A stretch of DNA of 20,000 nt from positions 1,778,649 to 1,798,648 of the forward strand of contig NC_057757.1 of assembly GCF_004010195.1 (NCBI RefSeq), written 5' to 3'. Made by a program: the position numbers and the translations under genes. Position 1 is the stretch's first letter. Each line of letters opens with the position of its first letter. This document shows positions 4,901 through 20,000 of the stretch, piece by piece. The notes below the pieces were generated by a model. The model was given only the letters and a program-made list of their open reading frames with translations, was not told the origin of the DNA and searched no databases. This DNA is from Chiloscyllium plagiosum (Eukaryota).

Positions 4901-4911
4901 AAAAAGATTTC

Positions 4912-5018
4912 AGAAACTAAAACAGGAATTGCAGGAAAATCTCAGCAAGTCTGGCAACATTTGTGGACAGAAGGTAGAGTTGCCCTTGAAGAGCCATTGG
5001 ACCCAAAACGTTAAGACT
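4912..5018. mobile_element. Fragment of a PLE-derived fold-back element (family of 15305-15476 and 18275-18770)
   Basis: aaaacaggaattgcaggaaaatctcagcaagtctggcaacatttgtgg...gagtt matches aaaacagaagttgctggaaaagctcagcacgtctggcagtatctgtg at 15346-15391. Confidence 0.6.
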
Positions 5019-6028
5019 TAATTGATCCCTGGTTACAGTGCCATGATCACTCATTGACTAAATTTATTGTTGCTGGAAACTCGAGCAATCCTTTTCCATT
5101 CCCAAAGGCAAATGCAGTTTCTGTTTTCTTTTTTTTTTCTTTGCTTTTGCTGCTATTGAACATAAATGGGCATTTTCAACCATTTGGAAGGCTTTCGGGT
5201 ATGTAATGCTCCACACTGAACGATGAAAAAATGCTAGGCTACACCAGTAAATGGGGAGAGAATAGTTCTCTTTTAGACAAGCTAAAATGGGATTATGCTA
5301 AGGACGGGTAACCTGTGTAGCTTGTTTCTTAAATCGCAATACTTTTACTCATGTGAACTTCTATTTGCAATGAAATGTCAGCCTTGCCACCTGTGTACCT
5401 TGAGAATCACTTGTTTTTGGATCCCCTCTCATCATGTGCATGGTGAAGGACAACTTGTAACTACCAGCGCCTGTTCTGATGGCCAATTGGACATTAAAAA
5501 TGCCATGAGTGTCAGGATCTCAGGAGTTTCCAGCAATGGCAAGTACTTGTACTTCTGGCAAGAGGGAAGAGAGGATATAGTGGTGTGGTGCAAAGTCATG
5601 AGGCAAATTTTAGAGAATAGCATTTTGAAATCTCACTAGGGTTCACAGTGAGAAACCCTCCACAGAACTCACTAAAATTGTTACTTTACCGAGTTTTGGT
5701 AAAATTTAGTCCTTCTTCTGTGGTAAAGTGTGACTTGTTGAAATATAAACAAAGATAATTCCATTTTACCAAACTTTGTTAGACTGCAGTTAATGTTAAA
5801 ATTTCCTGTCTACGTGTTTATTCATTTTGTTTCGCTTCTGTTGAAAGTAGGAAAAGTATTTTGCCTTTTTATTTACAGTTAGAAATCCATCCTCAATACT
5901 GTGTGTTGAGTTATCAACCAGAGAAGCAAAACAAGCACATTAATGTCTTGTGCTAAAGACGAAAAACAGGTAAGGAATACCCAAGGTTTTGGGTGTAGGT
6001 TTGCTCGCTAAGCTGGAAGATTCGTTTT

Positions 6029-6066
6029 CAGACATTTCGTCACCATACTAGGTAACATCTTCAGTG
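6029..6066 (-). ncRNA. Minimal hammerhead ribozyme motif in the PLE pLTR
   Basis: Minus strand: CA CUGAAGA U GUUACC UAGUAU GGUGAC GAAA UGUC UG. Six-bp stem II, stem I CA/UG, GUC triplet. The stem III palindrome is altered (ACGU to AUGU). Confidence 0.6.
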
Positions 6067-6131
6067 AGCCTCCGAATGAAGCACTGGTGGTGTAGTCCAC
6101 TTTCTATTTATATGTTTGAGTTCCCTTGGGT

Positions 6132-6185
6132 TGGTGATGCCATTTCCTGTGGTGACATCATTTCCTATGGTGATGTCATTTCCTG
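6132..6185. repeat. 3 x 18-bp tandem repeat inside the PLE 3' region
   Basis: tggtgatgccatttcctg / tggtgacatcatttccta / tggtgatgtcatttcctg. Confidence 0.85.
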
Positions 6186-7082
6186 TTCTTTTTCTCAGTT
6201 GATAAATGGGATCCAAGTCAATGTGTTTGTTGATAGAGTTCCAGTTGAAATGCATGCTTGTAGGAATTCTCGTGCGTGTCTCTGTTTGGCTTGTTCTAGG
6301 ATGGACGTGTTGTCCCATTGAAGTGGTGTCCTTCATCCATATGTAAGGATTCTAGTGAGAGTGGGTCATACCGTTTTGTGGTAAGATGATGTTAATGTGT
6401 CCTGGTGGCTAGTTTTCTGCCTGTTTGTCCAATGTAGTGTTTGTTACAGATCTTGCAAGGTATTTTGTAGATGACATTAATTTTGTTTGTTGTCTGTATA
6501 ACGTCTTTCAAGTTCATTAGCTGCTGTTTTAATGTGTTGATGGGTTTATGGGCTACCATGATGCCAAGAGGTCTGAGTAGTGTGGCAGTCATTTCCGAGA
6601 TGTCTTTGATGTAGGTGAGAGGGGCTAGGGTTTCTGGACATGTTTTGTCTGCTTGTTTGGGTTTGTTGCTCAGAAATTGGCGGACTGTGTTCATTGGATA
6701 CCTGTTCTTTTTGAATACACTGTGTAGGTGGTTTTCCTCTGCTTTGCGTAGTTCCTCTGTGGTGCAGTGTGTGGGGGTTCATTGAAATGATGTTCTAATG
6801 CAGCTTCGTTTGTGGATGATGGGATGATTGCTTCTGTAGTTCAATATTTGGTTTGTATATGTTGTTTTCCTGTAGATGCTAGTTTGAAGTTCCCCATTGG
6901 CTGTTCATTCTACTGCGACATCTAGGAATGGCAGTTGGTTGTTGTTTTCCTCCTCTTTAGTGAATTTTATGCCAGTAAGGGTATTATTGATGGTCTTGAA
7001 GGCTTCCTATAATTTGTTTCGTTTAGTGATGACAAACATGTCATCCATGTAGCAGACCCAAAATTTGGGTTTGATGTTTGAT

Positions 7083-7475
7083 AGAAGAGGATGAAATAAT
7101 GGTCTCCTTTGACATAACAGCCCTGTTCACATCCATCAACATCAACTGGCCAAGGAAACACTGACTATATTATTAGAAGAACCAAAGACACATACCCAAA
7201 CACCACCAACTTCAGTAAGGACAGTATCGTCAAGCTAGTGGACCTATGCCTTACCACCCACTTCACCTTCAACAACAAAACCTACAGACAAACCATCGGA
7301 ACACCCGGGATCTCCGATATCAGGGTTCTTAGCAGAGGCAGTAATGCAGAGACTCGAACAAACAGCTCTGCTAACCATCCAACCCAAACTTTGGGTCCGC
7401 TACGTGGATGACACCTTTGTCATCAGTAAACGGAATAAATTAGAGTAAACCTTCAAGACCCTTACTGATATAAAA
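7083..7475 (+). mobile_element. Inverted PLE RT core fragment (motifs A-C)
   Basis: Plus strand encodes EEDEIMVSFDITALFTSIN...GSPISGFLAEAVMQRLEQTALLTIQPKLWVRYVDDTFVI, with frameshifts. Confidence 0.9.
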
Positions 7476-8394: not shown

Positions 8395-10290
8395 CTAGCA
8401 CTTGGCCCATAGCCTTGTATATCCTGACTTCTTAAATGTTGTTTCTGCCCCTATCGCCTGTGCAGACAATTATTTCTAGATTCCCACCATGCCCTGGGTG
8501 AAAAAACTTTTCCCCACATCCCTCTCAACCTGTAAATCTATGCCTCCGTGCCATTGATTCCTCCACCAAAGAGAAAGGTCGTTTCAAGTCTTCCCCACCT
8601 ATACCTCCTCACAATTTTATTCATCTCAATCATGTCCCCCTTGAGCCTTCTGTGCTCCAAGGAAAACAACCCACTTTATCCAATCCCTCTTCGTAATTAA
8701 AACTTTGCAGCCCAGGCAACATCCAAGTGAACCTCCTCTGCACCCTCTCCAGTGCAATCATATCTCTCCTCCAATGTGGATTCCAGACTCCACAAAATAC
8801 TGTCACCGCACCCTAACCAACATTTTATATAGTTCTAGCATAACCTCTGTGCTGTTAAATTCCATGCCTTAGTTAATAAAGTCAAAATGTCCCGTATGTC
8901 TTCTTAGCCTTGCTCCTACTACTGTAAGGTTACTTTGATCCTCAGTGCTTCCCAGGACCTAACTGTTCATCCTGTGTTCTCTTGCCTTGTTTGTCCTTCC
9001 CAAGTTCATCACCTCATATGCTTTGGACTGAATTCCATTTGCCACTGATCAGTCTATCTGTCCATCTGTATTCTCCTATAACCTAAGGCTATCCTCCTCA
9101 CTGTCTGCCAACCTAAGAATTTAATGATTAACCTTCCTACTTTAAAGTCTAAATCGCTCTTAAATGGTACAAATAAATGAGGGCCCCAATTCTAGTCCTT
9201 GCTGAATCCCATTGGACAAGGGTTCCAATCATAGTCCTTGACCATCACTCTCTGCTTTCTGCTAGTCACCCAGTTCTGGATCCAATTAATCAAGTTTCCT
9301 TGGATCCCATGGGCTCTTACCTTTGCTGTCATTCCCCCATGAGGGATCTTATCAGAAGCCTTCCTGAAGTCAAAGTAGATTATGTCAAATGTATTGCCTT
9401 CATCTACATGTCATTGTCTCTTTGAAAAATTCAGTCAAGTATATCAGACATGACCTCCCCTTAACAAAACCGTGCTGACTGTTCTTGATTAATCCCTGCC
9501 TCTCCTGTCCTTCAGAGTCACTTTCAATAGTCTCATGACCACTGAGATTAGACAGATTGGCCCATAGTCTCCTTGTTTATCACTTCTTCCTTCTTGAGTA
9601 ATGGTATCACATTAGCTGTCCTCTAGTCCAGTGCCACCTAGCCTATTGTCTGAGAAGAATTGAAAATTACTGCCAACACTCCTGTTACTTCCTCCCTTGC
9701 CTCATTCAACAACCAGAGATACATTTCACCCAGCCCTGGAAATTTATCTACTTATAATTCTTCCAGACCATTCAGAACTTATTGCTAATTTCTTTAATTA
9801 TGTCACTGTCCTCCCCCCAGTTTCTGTACTCACATTGTGCCCCCTCACTAGTAGTAATTTTAAATCCTATGTCCTCTGCCTCCACGCATAAATAACCTTG
9901 TAGTCTTTCTCTAGTTATCCTCTTACTGTAAATATATTTGTAAAATAACTTAGGATTTTCCTTTATTTTATCTGCTATTAATCTTTCATGTCTCCCTCCC
10001 CCACTCTGTTTTGCTGTCCTGATTTTCTTTTTCAGTTCCTCTCATGCACATTCTTTGAGGGCTTATGCTGTCAGTGTCTGCCATAAGCCTCCCTTTCTGT
10101 CTTTATCCAATTCTGTATATCCCTCACTATCCAGGAGTTATTGGATTTGTTGGACCCTACATTTATTGGAATGTGTTGGCCCTCTGCTCTCCCTATTCAA
10201 TCTTGAATGCATCCCACTACACTGACTCATATTTACCCACAAGTAAATTTGGCAAAATGATATCTCATGGTATTAAAACAGCCTTCCCCC
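8395..10290 (-). mobile_element. Old CR1 LINE, about 1.9 kb of ORF2 with many indels
   Basis: Reverse complement shows CR1 motifs: gtagatgaaggcaatacatttgacataatctactttgacttcaggaaggcttctgataagatccctcat (VDxGxxxDIxYxDFxKAFDKxPH), cagcacggttttgttaagggg (QHGFVKG) and gcactggagagggtgcagaggagg (ALERVQRR). Confidence 0.85.
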
Positions 10291-10780: not shown

Positions 10781-10842
10781 GGCTGCCAAACCATCTGCCA
10801 GTGGAAACAGTTTCTCATCTACTCAGAAACAGAAATCCCCTT

Positions 10843-11512
10843 ATAGAGTCATACAGCATGGAAACAGAACCTTCAATCCAACCAGTCCATGCCAAACTAA
10901 GTGAGTCCCACCTGCCTGCTCCTGGCCCATGTCCCTCCAAACCTTTCCTATTCATGTACTTATCCAAATGTCCTTTAAACATTGCAATTGTACCCTCATG
11001 CCTTTTTTAAAACCTTTCTTCTCTCACTTTAAAAATGTGTCCCCTAATCTTGAAATTCCCCACTCCAGGGAAAAGACAACTACCATTAACTCTATCCGTA
11101 CCCCTCATTATTTTATCAACTTCTATCAAACTGCCTCTCAAGCTCTGATGCTCCAGTGAAAAAGGTCCCAGCCTTTCTTTATAACTCAAATTTTCCATAC
11201 CTTGCAACATCCTGGTGAATCTCTTCTGAAGCCTCTCCAGCTTGATGATATCCTTCCTACAACTGGCAACCAGAACTGGACACAGTATTCCAGAAGAGAC
11301 CTCACCAACATCCTGTACAACTTCAACATGATATCCCAACTCCTATACTCAAACGACTGAAGGCAAGTGTGCCGAATGCCTTTTGAATCACCCTGTCGAG
11401 ATGTGACGTAAACTTCAAAGAATTATGTCCCTGCACCCCTAGATCCCTCTGTTCCACAACACCACCCAAGCCCTTACCATTAATTGTATAAGCCCTGCTC
11501 TTGTTTGTTGTT
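10843..11512 (-). mobile_element. CR1/HER1-type LINE 3' fragment
   Basis: ORF 11007-11339 reads RKDIIKLERLQKRFTRML...LRGSLIEVDKIMRG...RGHIFKVR. The 3' tail tgctgtatgactctat lies at about 10843-10858 (minus strand). Confidence 0.9.
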
Positions 11513-11561
11513 ACTTTTGAGTATAATCAGAAAAATAAATGAAGAGACGGTTGTTAAAATC

Positions 11562-11567
11562 TTTATT
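11562..11567 (-). promoter_or_regulatory. Candidate polyadenylation signal AATAAA
   Basis: Plus-strand tttatt at 11562-11567, about 470 nt after the stop codon, with a U-rich element downstream. An alternative ATTAAA lies at 11639-11644 inside the PLE insert. Confidence 0.5.
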
Positions 11568-11593
11568 ACAAGTAAGATGTCTTAAAAGAAAGT

Positions 11594-11770
11594 TCATGCA
11601 TTTTGAAATCACACAACACCAGGTTATAGTCCAACAGATTTAATTGGAAGCACTAGCTTTCGGATCGCCACTCCTTCATCAGGTAATCCTGGACTATAAC
11701 CTGGTGTTGCGTGATTTTTAACTTTGTACACCCCAGTCCAACACCAACATCTCCAAATCATGCATTTTGA
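11594..11770. mobile_element. Penelope-like (PLE) pLTR-derived mini-element with inverted arms and a 13-bp TSD
   Basis: TSD tcatgcattttga at 11594-11606 and 11758-11770. Inverted repeat aaatcacacaacaccaggttatagtcca (11606-11633) / tggactataacctggtgttgcgtgattt (11690-11717). Contains a hammerhead core. Confidence 0.8.
11651..11685 (-). ncRNA. Minimal type I hammerhead ribozyme motif (PLE-associated)
   Basis: Minus strand: UAC CUGAUGA A GGAGUGGCGAUCC GAAA GCUA GUG. Core CUGAUGA and GAAA intact; stem I UAC/GUG; stem II GGA/UCC, then a G-A mismatch; palindromic AGCU stem III with a CUA cleavage triplet. Confidence 0.65.
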
Positions 11771-12034
11771 CTTCTGGAAAAAAAAGAACACTTATGCAAC
11801 ACAGTGCAGTCTTGGGGATTTTAACAACACCGGCATTAAAAAAGTCTTAATATTACATTCACATGAATTGTAGTGCTTCTTTGGGTCCCCTTGACTTTTC
11901 ATTTGGGCTTAGCACTGCTGAACATATGTAAGAGTATTGGTTCATTTTAAAACGATTAAAAATGAAACGGATCAAAAACATTTGAGGTTTCCAACTAGTT
12001 AGAGGAAGGAAATTGAATCAAAGTGTGCTGTACA

Positions 12035-12202
12035 TTAATCTGGTGTGTATTTCCTAGGATCTCCTGGAAACGGGAATTCTGGTGCTTGGTTGAAGTGCCC
12101 TGTGAGAAAAATCGTCACAGTGCCGATGGTAAAGAGGAGAAGCGCAATCCAGAAACAAGCCTTGTCGATAACCTTTCCGATCAGAATCCAGTTTTCATTC
12201 TC
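12035..12202 (-). CDS. chrne: Last coding exon (end of MA helix, M4, extracellular C-terminus) of a muscle nicotinic acetylcholine receptor epsilon/gamma-type subunit (Torpedo 'gamma'-like)
   Basis: Minus strand reads ttctgttctttcag|GAG AAT GAA AAC TGG... = [55 protein letters not shown] (55 aa + TAA at 12035-12037), phase 0. Nearly identical to the recalled Torpedo AChR gamma C-terminus ([54 protein letters not shown]). The chrne versus chrng symbol is an inference. Confidence 0.95.
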
Positions 12203-12559
12203 CTGAAAGAACAGAACTTACATTTTGTTGTTATAATTTCAACTGTTCTGGGGCATAAGTTCAGCTGTAACTAAACGCTAAAACATTGATTTAGTTATAT
12301 GAAAAATAGACATCCCTTACCAGAAGCATTAAGGGATGGTACTTGCTTTTCAGGAATCAGATAGTGTATGTTGCAGACTACTGACACATACACTAGATGA
12401 AAAAGTACAAGCACAATCATTCAAAATTTACAGCTAAACTGTCCGAAATGGAAAATACTGATGACACAAAGTTGACAGGTATTTTATTGACCTGTTTTTG
12501 AACTCATTCAGTACTTGCTTAAATCAATTTGTACCTTTGTAGTTTTAAACAGATACTTT

Positions 12560-13879: not shown

Positions 13880-14013
13880 AGATTCAAAATCATTCTGTTC
13901 TTTTGTGCTTTTGGCAATAAAGTTACAGGCATCAACGCAGGTTTTTATGTCTGGGCCAAAGTGAGCCAGGTTTCTGTATAGATCAACTGTGGTTCCAATA
14001 TCAATGTCTGAAC
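13880..14013 (-). CDS. chrne: Penultimate coding exon (M3-M4 loop, MA amphipathic helix) of the same nAChR epsilon/gamma-type subunit
   Basis: Minus strand: gttttgtatttccatttcactcag|GT TCA GAC ATT ... GAA TCT|gtgagt. 134 bp = 2 nt + 44 codons: [44 protein letters not shown], matching recalled Torpedo gamma [44 protein letters not shown]. Splices in phase 0 to the exon at 12202. Upstream exons were not found and probably lie beyond 20000. Confidence 0.95.
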
Positions 14014-15289: not shown

Positions 15290-15490
15290 CAAATTTCAGC
15301 CTAGATAAAAACTGAAAGAAATGTGGATGCTGTAAATCAGAAACAAAAACAGAAGTTGCTGGAAAAGCTCAGCACGTCTGGCAGTATCTGTGAAGAGAAA
15401 TCGAGTTAACTTTTTGGGTCAGGTTCCGAGGATGGGTCAACAGAGCTGATTTATCAGCAACTTCTGTTTTTGTTTCAAATTTCAGTTTAG
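15290..15490. mobile_element. PLE-derived fold-back mini-element with a degenerate 15-bp TSD
   Basis: Flanks caaatttcagcctag (15290-15304) and caaatttcagtttag (15476-15490). Perfect 22-bp inverted repeat gaaacaaaaacagaagttgctg (15340-15361) / cagcaacttctgtttttgtttc (15455-15476). Confidence 0.75.
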
Positions 15491-16544: not shown

Positions 16545-17430
16545 CCCAGGCTGAAATACTCTCAGTTGCTTCATCAATGACCTTCCCTCCGTCCTGAGAT
16601 CAGAAGTGTTCACTGATGACTGTGCAATATTCAGCACCACTGACAACTGTTCAGCAGCTGAGAAATCATGCAAGGCCCTCACGATATCCAGATTTGGACT
16701 GACAAGTGGAAGTCACAGAAAGTGAGCACTGCAGTGGCTGGAAATCAGAGTCGAGAGTGTGGTGCTGGAAAAGCATCCGAGGAGCAGGAGAATCAAAGTT
16801 TCAGGCAGAAGCCCTTCATCGGGAAAGTGGAAGTCACATTTGTGCCACACGTGCCAGGCAATCAGCATCTCCAACAAGAGACAACCATCAACATTTGACA
16901 TTCAATGGCATTACCATTGCTGAATTCCCCCACTACAAACATCCCAGGGCTCACTATTGATCAGAAACTGAACTGGACCAGCACATAAATACTGTAGCTA
17001 CAACAGCAAGTCAGATGCAAGGAACCCTGCAGTAAGTAACATGTCTGCTGACTCCCTTAAGCCTGTGCATCACCTACAAAATACAAATGAGGAGTATGAT
17101 AGAGTACTTCTCACTTAACTGACTGAGTGGACCCAACAACATACAAGAAGCTTGACACCATCCAGGAAAAAGCAGTTTGCTTGATTAGCCCCATGTTTGT
17201 GTTCCCTCCCTCGACCACCAGTGCTCAGTAGCAAAAGTGTGTACCATCTACCATCTAAGGCTCCTTAGGCAGCAACTTCTAACTTATGACTGCTATTATC
17301 TAGATGGATAAGGGAAATAGCTACATGGGAACATTACCACCTGCAAGTTCTCCTTCAAACCAACCAACACCAATCTGACTTGGAATTTGCTGGGTTTTTG
17401 CTGGATCAATTTCCTGGAACTCCCTCCCTG
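16545..17430 (+). mobile_element. Non-LTR LINE ORF2 fragment (same family as 12715-13430), interrupted by a PLE mini-insert
   Basis: ttgcttcatcaatgaccttccctcc (CFINDLPS), ttcactgatgactgtgcaata (FxDDC), attgatcagaaactgaactggaccagc (IDQKLNWTS). aagaagcttgacaccatccagg is shared with 13066-13087. Confidence 0.8.
16704..16838 (-). mobile_element. Solo PLE pLTR fragment (107 bp) with a perfect 14-bp TSD
   Basis: aagtggaagtcaca at 16704-16717 and 16825-16838. The insert is homologous to the reverse complement of 2860-2990 and carries a degenerate hammerhead (ccgatgaagggcttctgcctgaaac on the minus strand). Confidence 0.8.
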
Positions 17431-18274: not shown

Positions 18275-18770
18275 ATAAAGAACCAAAGATGCTGAGGATC
18301 AGAAAAAAGACAGAAATTGCTGGAGAAACTCAGCAGGCATGGTGGCACAGTGATCAGTATTGCTGCCTCAACATACCAGGCGCCTAGGTCTGATTCCAGC
18401 CTTGGGTGACTGTCTTTGTGGCGTTTGCATGTTCTCCCTGTGTCTGCTCAGGTTCCCTCCAGTGATCTGGTTTCTTCCCACAATTCAATGAGGTGCAGGT
18501 TAGCTGTGTTAGCCATGGTTTAATTATGGTGCAGGAGGTGAGGTGGATCTGGGTGAAATGCTCTTCATAGGGTCAGTGCATTCTCAGTGAACTGAATAAT
18601 CTCTTTCTGCTCTGTAGGAGTTTATGATTCTGGGCTGCATTTGTGAACAGAAAGCAGAGTTAATATTTCAGGTCAGAACAAGACAAGCGACATTAGACTC
18701 GAAATGTTAACTCTGCTTTCTCTCCACATATTCTGCCAGACTTACTGAGTTTCTCAGCAATTTCTGATCT
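18275..18770. mobile_element. PLE-derived fold-back element, interrupted by a SINE
   Basis: Left arm cagaaattgctggagaaactcagcagg...[SINE]...gcatttgtgaacagaaagcagagttaatatttc; right arm gaaatgttaactctgctttctctccacatattctgccagacttactgagtttctcagcaatttctg is its reverse complement. Confidence 0.7.
18340..18630 (+). mobile_element. HE1-like tRNA-derived V-SINE
   Basis: Head ggtggcacagtg...gctgcctca...gattccagccttgggtgactgtc, V-domain gtttgcatgttctccctgtgtctgc...ggtttcttcccaca, and a HER1/CR1-like tail ctgtaggagtttatgattct. Confidence 0.8.
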
Positions 18771-19075: not shown

Positions 19076-20000
19076 ACCATAAGACCATAAGACATAGGAG
19101 TGGAAGTAAGGCCATTCGGCCCATCGTGTCCACTCCGCCATTCAATCATGGCTGATGCGCATTTCAGCTCCACTTACCAGCGTTCTCCCCGTAGCCCTTA
19201 ATTCCTCTAGACAACAAGAATCTATCAATCTCGGCCTTGAAGACATTTAGCGTCCCGGCTTCCACTGCACTCCGTGGCAATGAATTCCACAGGCCCACCA
19301 CTCTCTGGCTGAAGAAATATCTCCGCATTTCTGTTCTGAAATGACCCCCTCTAATTCTAAGGCTGTGTCCACGGATCCTAGTCTCCTCGTCTAACGGAAA
19401 CAATTGCCTAGCATCCACCTTTTCCAAGCCATGTATTATTTTGTACGCCTCTATTAAGTCTCCCCTTAATCTTCTAAAATCCAACGAATACAATCCCAGT
19501 ATCCTCAGCCATTCCTCATATGTTAGACCTGTCATTCCAGGGATAATCCATGTGAATGTCCGCTGGACACGTTCCAGTGCCAGTATATCCTTCCTGAGGT
19601 GTGGGGACCAAAACTGGACACAGTACTCCAAATGGGGCCTAACCAGAGCTTTATAAAGTCTTAGTAGTACATCTCTGCTTTTATATTCCAACCCTCTTGA
19701 GATAAGAGACAACATTGCATTCGCTTTCTTAATCACGGACTCAACCTGCATGTTTACCTTTAGAGAATCCTCGACTAGCACTCCCAGATCCCTTTGTGCT
19801 TTGGCTCTATTAATTTTCTCACCATTTAGAAAGCTTTTATTCTTTTTGCCAAAGTGCAAGAACTCGTACTTGCTCACGTTAAATTCCATCAGCCAAATCC
19901 TGGACCACTCTCCCAACCTGTCGAGATCCTTCTGTAGCCTCCCCACTTCCTCAGTACCACCTGCCTGTCCACCTAACTTCGTACCATCGGCAAACTTCGC
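19076..20000 (-). mobile_element. Young CR1 LINE, ORF2 C-terminal 278 codons still open, with (TCTTATGG)-type tail; continues beyond the window
   Basis: Frame open from 20000 to 19164: AKFADGTKLGG...RLQKDLDRLGEWS...LYKALVRPHLEYCVQFWSPHLRKDILALERVQR...RGHSLRI...FFSQRVVGLWNSLP. Tail cctatgtcttatggtcttatgg. Confidence 0.95.

Follow-up and report, generated by a model that had tools for sequence, protein, structure and literature searches.

The insert studied here lies in the 3'UTR of a receptor gene on the minus strand of a 20,000-nucleotide stretch of DNA that was analysed at its full length (hereafter the window). The last exon of this gene has its best protein match in the acetylcholine receptor gamma subunit (phmmer, E 6.4e-31), ahead of the epsilon (4.2e-11) and delta (2.4e-9) subunits, and the penultimate exon gives a weak Neur_chan_memb match in a profile search (E 0.0015, under the curated cut-off). 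By best match, the host gene can be regarded as muscle-type acetylcholine receptor gamma-like, in line with a preliminary description of this DNA that had placed the insert within a muscle acetylcholine receptor gene. Judged in part by this match, the source is probably a cartilaginous fish. The insert occupies the region 265-441 nt 3' of the receptor TAA (12037-12035), ahead of the first AATAAA (11567-11562), and carries a hammerhead motif in the sense orientation relative to the receptor mRNA; both the position and the orientation are as previously described. A LINE-like reverse transcriptase remnant, recognized by eye, occupies 10800-11526 and starts ~35 nt past this AATAAA, with related copies at 8688-8774 and 19513-19645. 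The locus comprises the following features:

13880-14013, minus strand: penultimate coding exon of the acetylcholine receptor gamma-like gene (end of the M3-M4 loop), with AG/GT borders and in frame with the last exon
12035-12202, minus strand: coding part of the last exon, with the gamma-subunit match and the TAA at 12037-12035; transcript contigs stop matching the window at the acceptor (12202) and have zero intron depth
11771-12034, minus strand: unique 3'UTR of 264 nt, covered by spliced contigs of the sequencing runs X1 and X4 (2 and 16 substitutions relative to the window, respectively)
11758-11770, minus strand: upstream copy of the 13-bp target-site duplication (TSD), whose inner 4-5 nt are also the element family's own end
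11718-11757, plus strand: 40-nt tail of the inverted element copy, antisense in the mRNA and found at one end alone
11685-11717, plus strand: inverted copy of the element 3' end, consisting of arm 1 (11690-11717) and a degraded continuation to the junction
11651-11684, minus strand: minimal type I hammerhead motif with its core and a decayed stem II; putative cut between 11654 and 11653
11639-11644, minus strand: ATTAAA hexamer found by motif scan, with AATAAA in roughly a third to a half of the family depth
11607-11633, minus strand: arm 2, the tail-less 3' end of the sense copy
11594-11606, minus strand: downstream copy of the 13-bp TSD, an exact repeat
11562-11567, minus strand: first AATAAA past the stop, followed by a U-rich stretch; putative native poly(A) signal

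The element insert measures 151 bp without the TSDs and 177 nt with both TSD copies. The two copies of the 13-bp TSD (TCAAAATGCATGA, minus strand), at 11770-11758 and 11606-11594, are identical, with the identity broken at base 14, and the inverted repeat is formed by arms at 11606-11633 and 11690-11717 (28 nt, 96% complementary, 56-nt spacing); these features, together with the ATTAAA (11644-11639) just past the putative cleavage site, had been noted earlier and are reproduced here. The last 4-5 nt of the element family coincide with the first TSD bases (11758-11762) and include ATG on the plus strand, an overlap that suggests microhomology at the insertion site. Self-alignment and the loose ends of family contigs point to an apparent 3-nt deletion in the continuation of arm 1. 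The insert has a folding z-score of -8.8, with none of 200 shuffles equally good, and fold prediction gives the hairpin a pair probability of 1.0 in the full UTR. The 28-bp hairpin simply follows from the head-to-head layout in which Penelope-like elements typically insert. Rfam matches to miRNA and snoRNA models are hairpin-driven noise (mir-607, 31.6 bits compared with a gathering score of 94), and a miRNA gene reading of the insert was rejected.

The Penelope-like family and its insertion structure

Four of 24 listed sequencing runs were used: contigs of X1 (organism A), X4 (organism B), and X12 (genomic) were aligned to positions 11250-12350 of the window, and X17 was sampled as reads (~6% of the run). 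Contigs matching the stretch numbered 2,386 of 953,466 in X1, 3,850 of 1,060,404 in X4, and 43,854 of 25,783,717 in X12, with their depth mostly over the insert (summed contig depth is not taken as a copy number); none of the 8,328,510 sampled records of X17 was placed on the stretch, which is no test of transcript ends. The ends of family contigs pile up at 11606 and 11761/11762, beyond which the flanks are unrelated. Family contigs also extend the upstream arm into the 3' half of the ribozyme, and they part from the window past 11684, so that the match ends 2 nt upstream of the hammerhead core. Based on these ends, this continuation, and this divergence point, we read the insert as a sense copy of the element end, clipped 2 nt before the core, plus an inverted copy with a 40-nt tail.

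Penelope-like insertions, in the examples described in the cited reports, consist of an inverted 5'-truncated copy, an optional tail of 30-40 bp at one end, and a short TSD (PMC8557442, PMC3846280), and the tail has been linked in one such account to two reverse-transcription start sites (PMC11167929). The inverted 5'-truncated copy, the tail at a single end, and the TSD are all present here, and thousands of contigs with shared ends represent an interspersed multicopy family. As in the head-to-head endonuclease-bearing insertions of these reports (PMC8557442, PMC3846280, PMC11167929), an inverted copy adjoins the 5' end, the tail is confined to one end, and a TSD flanks the whole; unlike those insertions, the receptor insert has no ORF, totals 151 bp, and has a TSD of 13 bp rather than the 8-10 bp of the rotifer examples given there. 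The insert is a truncated Penelope-like insertion carrying a minimal hammerhead, a known class and ordinary in kind, and its architecture supports the earlier assignment of the ribozyme to the Penelope type. A DNA transposon with terminal inverted repeats was rejected, as the arms are internal and asymmetric and represent two copies of one element end, and a tandem retrozyme was rejected, as the insert has a single ribozyme.

The 11643 A>T variant, which creates AATAAA, accounts for 39%, 33%, and 49% of the family depth in X1, X4, and X12, respectively, and the AWUAAA hexamer is a trait of the element family. Within this hexamer, plus-strand T>C at 11641 (A>G in the element's sense orientation) reaches 14% of depth in X1, 3% in X4, and 0.9% in X12, a family-level change that could be due to edited family transcripts or to a variant of the species. 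A scan of metagenome and viral contigs with the family pattern gave 0 matches; a shorter pattern gave 4 + 5 matches, all 9 of which were rejected as chance matches of 18-24 nt.

Presence in spliced receptor mRNA and in related organisms

In X1, 11733-12202 is covered by a 1,843-nt contig (depth 164) that differs from the window by 2 substitutions and 3 gaps; in X4, a 1,842-nt contig covers 11731-12202 and differs by 17 substitutions and 2 gaps. Although the runs carry only tentative labels, both contigs were read as spliced RNA because the match stops at the acceptor at 12202 with zero intron depth, whereas the genomic run X12 enters the intron. The receptor contigs of X1 and X4 cross the TSD and extend 25-27 nt into the element, and the main spliced contigs end where the 31-letter graph must branch. 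Since spliced contigs cross the TSD into the element, the insertion is transcribed and common to three organisms. The presence of the insert in receptor mRNA, which had been presumed from its position, is thus seen in organisms A and B, where spliced contigs enter it, and extends to 11625 in organism A; at its 5' junction, the insertion is common to three organisms and not private to one, and one of the three is ~6% divergent in the UTR. The copy therefore lies in mature mRNA, as a domesticated ribozyme should, and any insertion that had become fixed would be expected to persist in the three organisms.

The motif itself is represented in X1 by a 103-nt contig that equals 11625-11727 with 0 differences (depth 19.1) and spans the junction and the whole motif. 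This locus-exact contig extends 29 nt beyond the putative cut, compared with the 31 letters of the bridging rule, and among the X1, X4, and X12 contigs no single record joins the unique UTR and the ribozyme. The ribozyme contig has 0.12 of the depth of the upstream mRNA contig. Drop-out at the hairpin, a 3' end close by, an isoform, or cleavage could each account for this drop, which counts against reading the insert as a passenger. The bin 11546-11582 has no contig in any run; since the genomic run X12 is also empty there, this hole is not evidence on polyadenylation and may come from filtering by the tool or from a difference between assemblies. In organism B, the 40 nt of the TSD and tail to which its comparison extends (the ribozyme part is not among the listed pieces) carry 0 changes, compared with 16 over the 264 nt of the UTR. 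This pattern tends toward conservation without reaching significance (P about 0.09), and it likewise counts against a passenger.

The hammerhead motif and its predicted folding

On the minus strand, the motif reads UAC (11685-11683), CUGAUGA (11682-11676), an extra A (11675), GGAGUGGCGAUCC (11674-11662), GAAAGCUA (11661-11654), and GUG (11653-11651). The core boxes of the minimal hammerhead (min-HHR) are present (CUGAUGA, GAAA at 11661-11658, and CUA at 11656-11654), as are the extra nucleotide between 9 and 10.1 (A11675), the G10.1-C11.1 letters (G11674 and C11662), and the palindromic 15.2-16.2 (AGCU, 11658-11655), with helix III arising only in a dimer. The same core letters, extra base, G10.1-C11.1 pair, and palindrome without helix III are given for the min-HHR of metazoan Penelope-like elements, which occur as dispersed solo copies in large numbers in the account of Cervera and De la Pena (2014, PMC4209133). 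The receptor copy differs from the examples of that account in that its helix II is cut down to 3 bp and one mismatch, with no formation predicted (7-8 bp in Schistosoma), in that the insertion junction truncates its helix I, and in that it sits in a host mRNA.

Helix I comprises 2 Watson-Crick pairs and a U-G, compared with the usual 4-5 bp, and a chance 3-bp extension at the junction competes with the hairpin. In stem II, the G-A mismatch (11671/11665) pointed out in the preliminary description is present and adjoins a U-G pair (11670/11666); the "intact hammerhead core" of that description holds for the core letters but not for stem II. The bare core pattern has 5 matches in the window compared with 1.96 expected, and 12 of 200 shuffles reach 5; the pattern alone is not rare, and the argument depends on the anatomy as a whole and on the family. 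A search with the Rfam hammerhead models, proposed earlier as a check, gave no match at E<=1 in the window or at E<=10 with the 67-nt core. These models are insensitive to the minimal-hammerhead class, since a well-formed motif at 6064 was also missed.

The family letters, which have G on the plus strand at 11670 and 11665 (one X4 loose-end consensus of 25 contigs, agreement 0.59), turn the U-G and G-A of stem II into Watson-Crick pairs; they are only moderately supported, because 11670 and 11665 are missing from the alternative-letter table. Family depth drops 7.5- to 10-fold over 11657-11693, as expected where the stem II of this copy differs from most copies, and, judged by these letters, two changes in stem II seem to lack compensation. 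In folding models that leave out magnesium, tertiary contacts, and proteins, the stem II hairpin has -0.9 kcal/mol with the window letters compared with -5.8 kcal/mol with the family letters, and the G10.1-C11.1 pair has a probability of <=0.001 in 4 of 4 contexts compared with 0.75-0.96 in the family-letter control and 0.99 in the motif at 6064; on both values, a stable helix II is not predicted. Opening the core would cost 5.7-10.0 kcal/mol in the window copy and 1.7-4.4 kcal/mol in the family-letter control, and a double hammerhead of two copies is computed to lie 10 kcal/mol above the monomers. The predicted misfolding is to be set beside the fact that short stems II can be active.

The latent self-cleavage site proposed in the preliminary description finds no support, since stem II is predicted to be unformed, no second copy of the insert's family lies in cis within the 20-kb window, and solo minimal hammerheads showed no activity in the assays of the reports cited here. 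In those described in PMC4209133, cleavage was absent with one minimal hammerhead and slight with dimers, and in the results cited here even dimers are poor cleavers in vitro (PMC4209133, PMC6765202, 10.64898/2026.07.22.740005), 8 of 9 frog dimers being without cleavage (10.64898/2026.07.22.740005). For the anole element, the ribozyme requires the element's protein, and the account given reports no RNA-seq ends at the cut (PMC11167929). On these predictions, the ribozyme in the receptor mRNA most likely does not cut.

Origin of the insert and alternative explanations

We regard the insert as probably a fixed, decaying passenger with a silent ribozyme and no selected regulatory role; this is the favored explanation because the motif looks too worn to fold and cut. 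A Penelope-like element would have copied its last ~80 nt alone, from 2 nt ahead of the hammerhead core, and an inverted, tailed copy of the same element end would have been joined to the sense copy, a mechanism modeled on published insertions for a structure that is itself observed. Insertion into the gamma-like 3'UTR ~26 nt before the AATAAA would have duplicated 13 bp of target and would have been followed by fixation before the split of organisms A, B, and C, which share the 5' junction, and by retention in the mature mRNA, as seen to 11625 in organism A. The two uncompensated changes in stem II would reflect later decay, with the core now computed to be self-paired within a very stable hairpin. 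We infer that the ribozyme would not cut and that the insert would be tolerated as neutral. Apart from the depth ratio and the pattern in organism B, the intactness of all core letters and the retention of the insert in three organisms count against this explanation.

A structural role is unlikely, though it is the alternative to which we give most weight: the ribozyme would be dead, and the ~33-bp hairpin or the ATTAAA would shift the poly(A) site or draw double-stranded-RNA proteins, tuning mRNA ends or stability. The predicted formation of the hairpin in the full UTR, a GU-rich stretch following the ATTAAA, and the occurrence of the insertion in three organisms would suit such a role, but the GU-rich stretch would sit paired in the hairpin, and hairpin and hexamer come automatically with such insertions. 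The fall in X1 depth over the ribozyme, although compatible with an altered mRNA end, is also what drop-out at the hairpin or a usual 3'-end effect would give; the emptiness of X1 and X4 at 11546-11582 is uninformative, as the hole recurs in genomic X12, and with 0 differences the locus-exact contig has no editing visible in it. Hairpins of inverted-repeat Alu elements and Alu-Alu duplexes in mammalian 3'UTRs are a source of retroelement double-stranded RNA and a parallel for possible pairing with family transcripts; both the receptor and the Alu hairpins are made by retroelements in 3'UTRs, but they have ~33 bp and ~300 bp, respectively. It is extremely unlikely that most receptor transcripts end before or early within the insert and that the ribozyme is confined to a minor long isoform. 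The low depth of the ribozyme contig, the absence of a record bridging the unique UTR and the ribozyme, and weak AATGAA hexamers at 11946 and 11903, downstream of the stop, would be compatible with such an isoform; however, a hexamer scan of the window found no AATAAA or ATTAAA between the stop and 11644, and the main contigs of both organisms pass 11771 into the insert and stop at the 31-letter graph branch.

Assisted latent cleavage, in which a sense family transcript would dock on the antisense arm and tail, bringing its intact ribozyme next to the AGCUA-GUG half of the mRNA, and a hetero double hammerhead or the element protein would cut after 11654 regardless of how far stem II of this copy has decayed, is highly unlikely. 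The substrate half (AGCUA-GUG) is intact, and family sequence is plentiful in the RNA-type runs (in X1, a summed depth of 92,679 compared with 164, strand not distinguished). A model partner is computed to bind at -35 to -67 kcal/mol with nesting compatible with a double hammerhead, but hand-built double-hammerhead folds are less favorable than the best cofold by 15-19 and 27-31 kcal/mol, the second gap being overstated because the remainder of the RNA was left unpaired, and most of the tail toehold is base-paired (mean unpaired 0.25). Protein-assisted cutting has been reported for the anole element in the account cited (PMC11167929), whereas the dimers of the reports cited above are poor cleavers in vitro. 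About as improbable is the specific possibility that the inverted arm and tail serve as a docking site that places two minimal hammerheads in double-hammerhead geometry, so that a partner with an intact core might act in trans on the receptor mRNA and cleave it after 11654 despite the decayed stem II of this copy. If such docking were true, every head-to-head 3'UTR insertion would couple host mRNA fate to Penelope transcription, and proof of cleavage or of a shifted poly(A) site would make the insert a retroelement minimal hammerhead in control of a host gene. If the insert is a passenger, as we favor, the consequence is small: one more decayed Penelope-like stub, in a mature mRNA and shared by related species.

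The literature on hammerheads with Penelope, shark genomes, and UTR exaptation (mostly open-access, supplements aside) yielded no report of this locus and no case in which a host gene is controlled by a minimal hammerhead from a retroelement; the 3'UTR precedent described there is the structurally different Clec2 ribozyme. Like the receptor motif, the rodent Clec2 hammerhead lies on the sense strand, past the stop and ahead of the presumed poly(A) signal, and it is described as a discontinuous type III ribozyme of several mammals that lowers a reporter by 80% (PMC2950038, PMC6155905). In contrast, the receptor motif is a minimal, dimer-dependent, decayed retroelement motif. Non-LTR retrozymes share the origin from Penelope-like terminal repeats and the type I hammerhead but, as described, form tandem arrays with at least 2 ribozymes, compared with the single ribozyme and inverted arm of the receptor insert; rare exonic retrozyme copies in Xenopus tend toward 3'UTRs in the same source (10.64898/2026.07.22.740005). 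The insert is real, ordinary in kind, and mildly interesting for sitting in a mature mRNA, and the locus offers a compact test case for the question of whether minimal hammerheads are silent once landed in mRNAs.

About eight related stubs lie in the window, three of which pass the hammerhead descriptor. Because about eight such stubs sit there, the chance of a sense motif in a UTR of 0.5-1 kb is put at ~2-5% per gene, a crude figure based on 2 other motifs per 40 kb of strand. A head-to-head pair of a second hammerhead-bearing family occupies 2475-2960 around an N gap (2636-2682), with arms 96-97% complementary; of its two motifs, one reads AAAA in place of GAAA, and the other is shorter in the stem II region. 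Further related stubs occur at 15334-15482, 18633-18766, 4910-4972, 16744-16832, and 18298-18335; two of these five share the short inverted-arm layout, and their decayed cores fail the hammerhead descriptor. Broken Penelope-like ORF remnants in both orientations extend over 5985-7448, with a weak RVT_1 match at 7239-7445 (plus strand) and a GIY-YIG-like stretch, seen by eye, near 6400-6470. Behind a reverse transcriptase remnant there, a family other than that of the receptor insert has a well-formed minus-strand minimal hammerhead at 6064. With a computed stem II of -6.7 kcal/mol and a closing pair probability of 0.99, the motif at 6064 is predicted to be a better test substrate than the motif in the receptor UTR.
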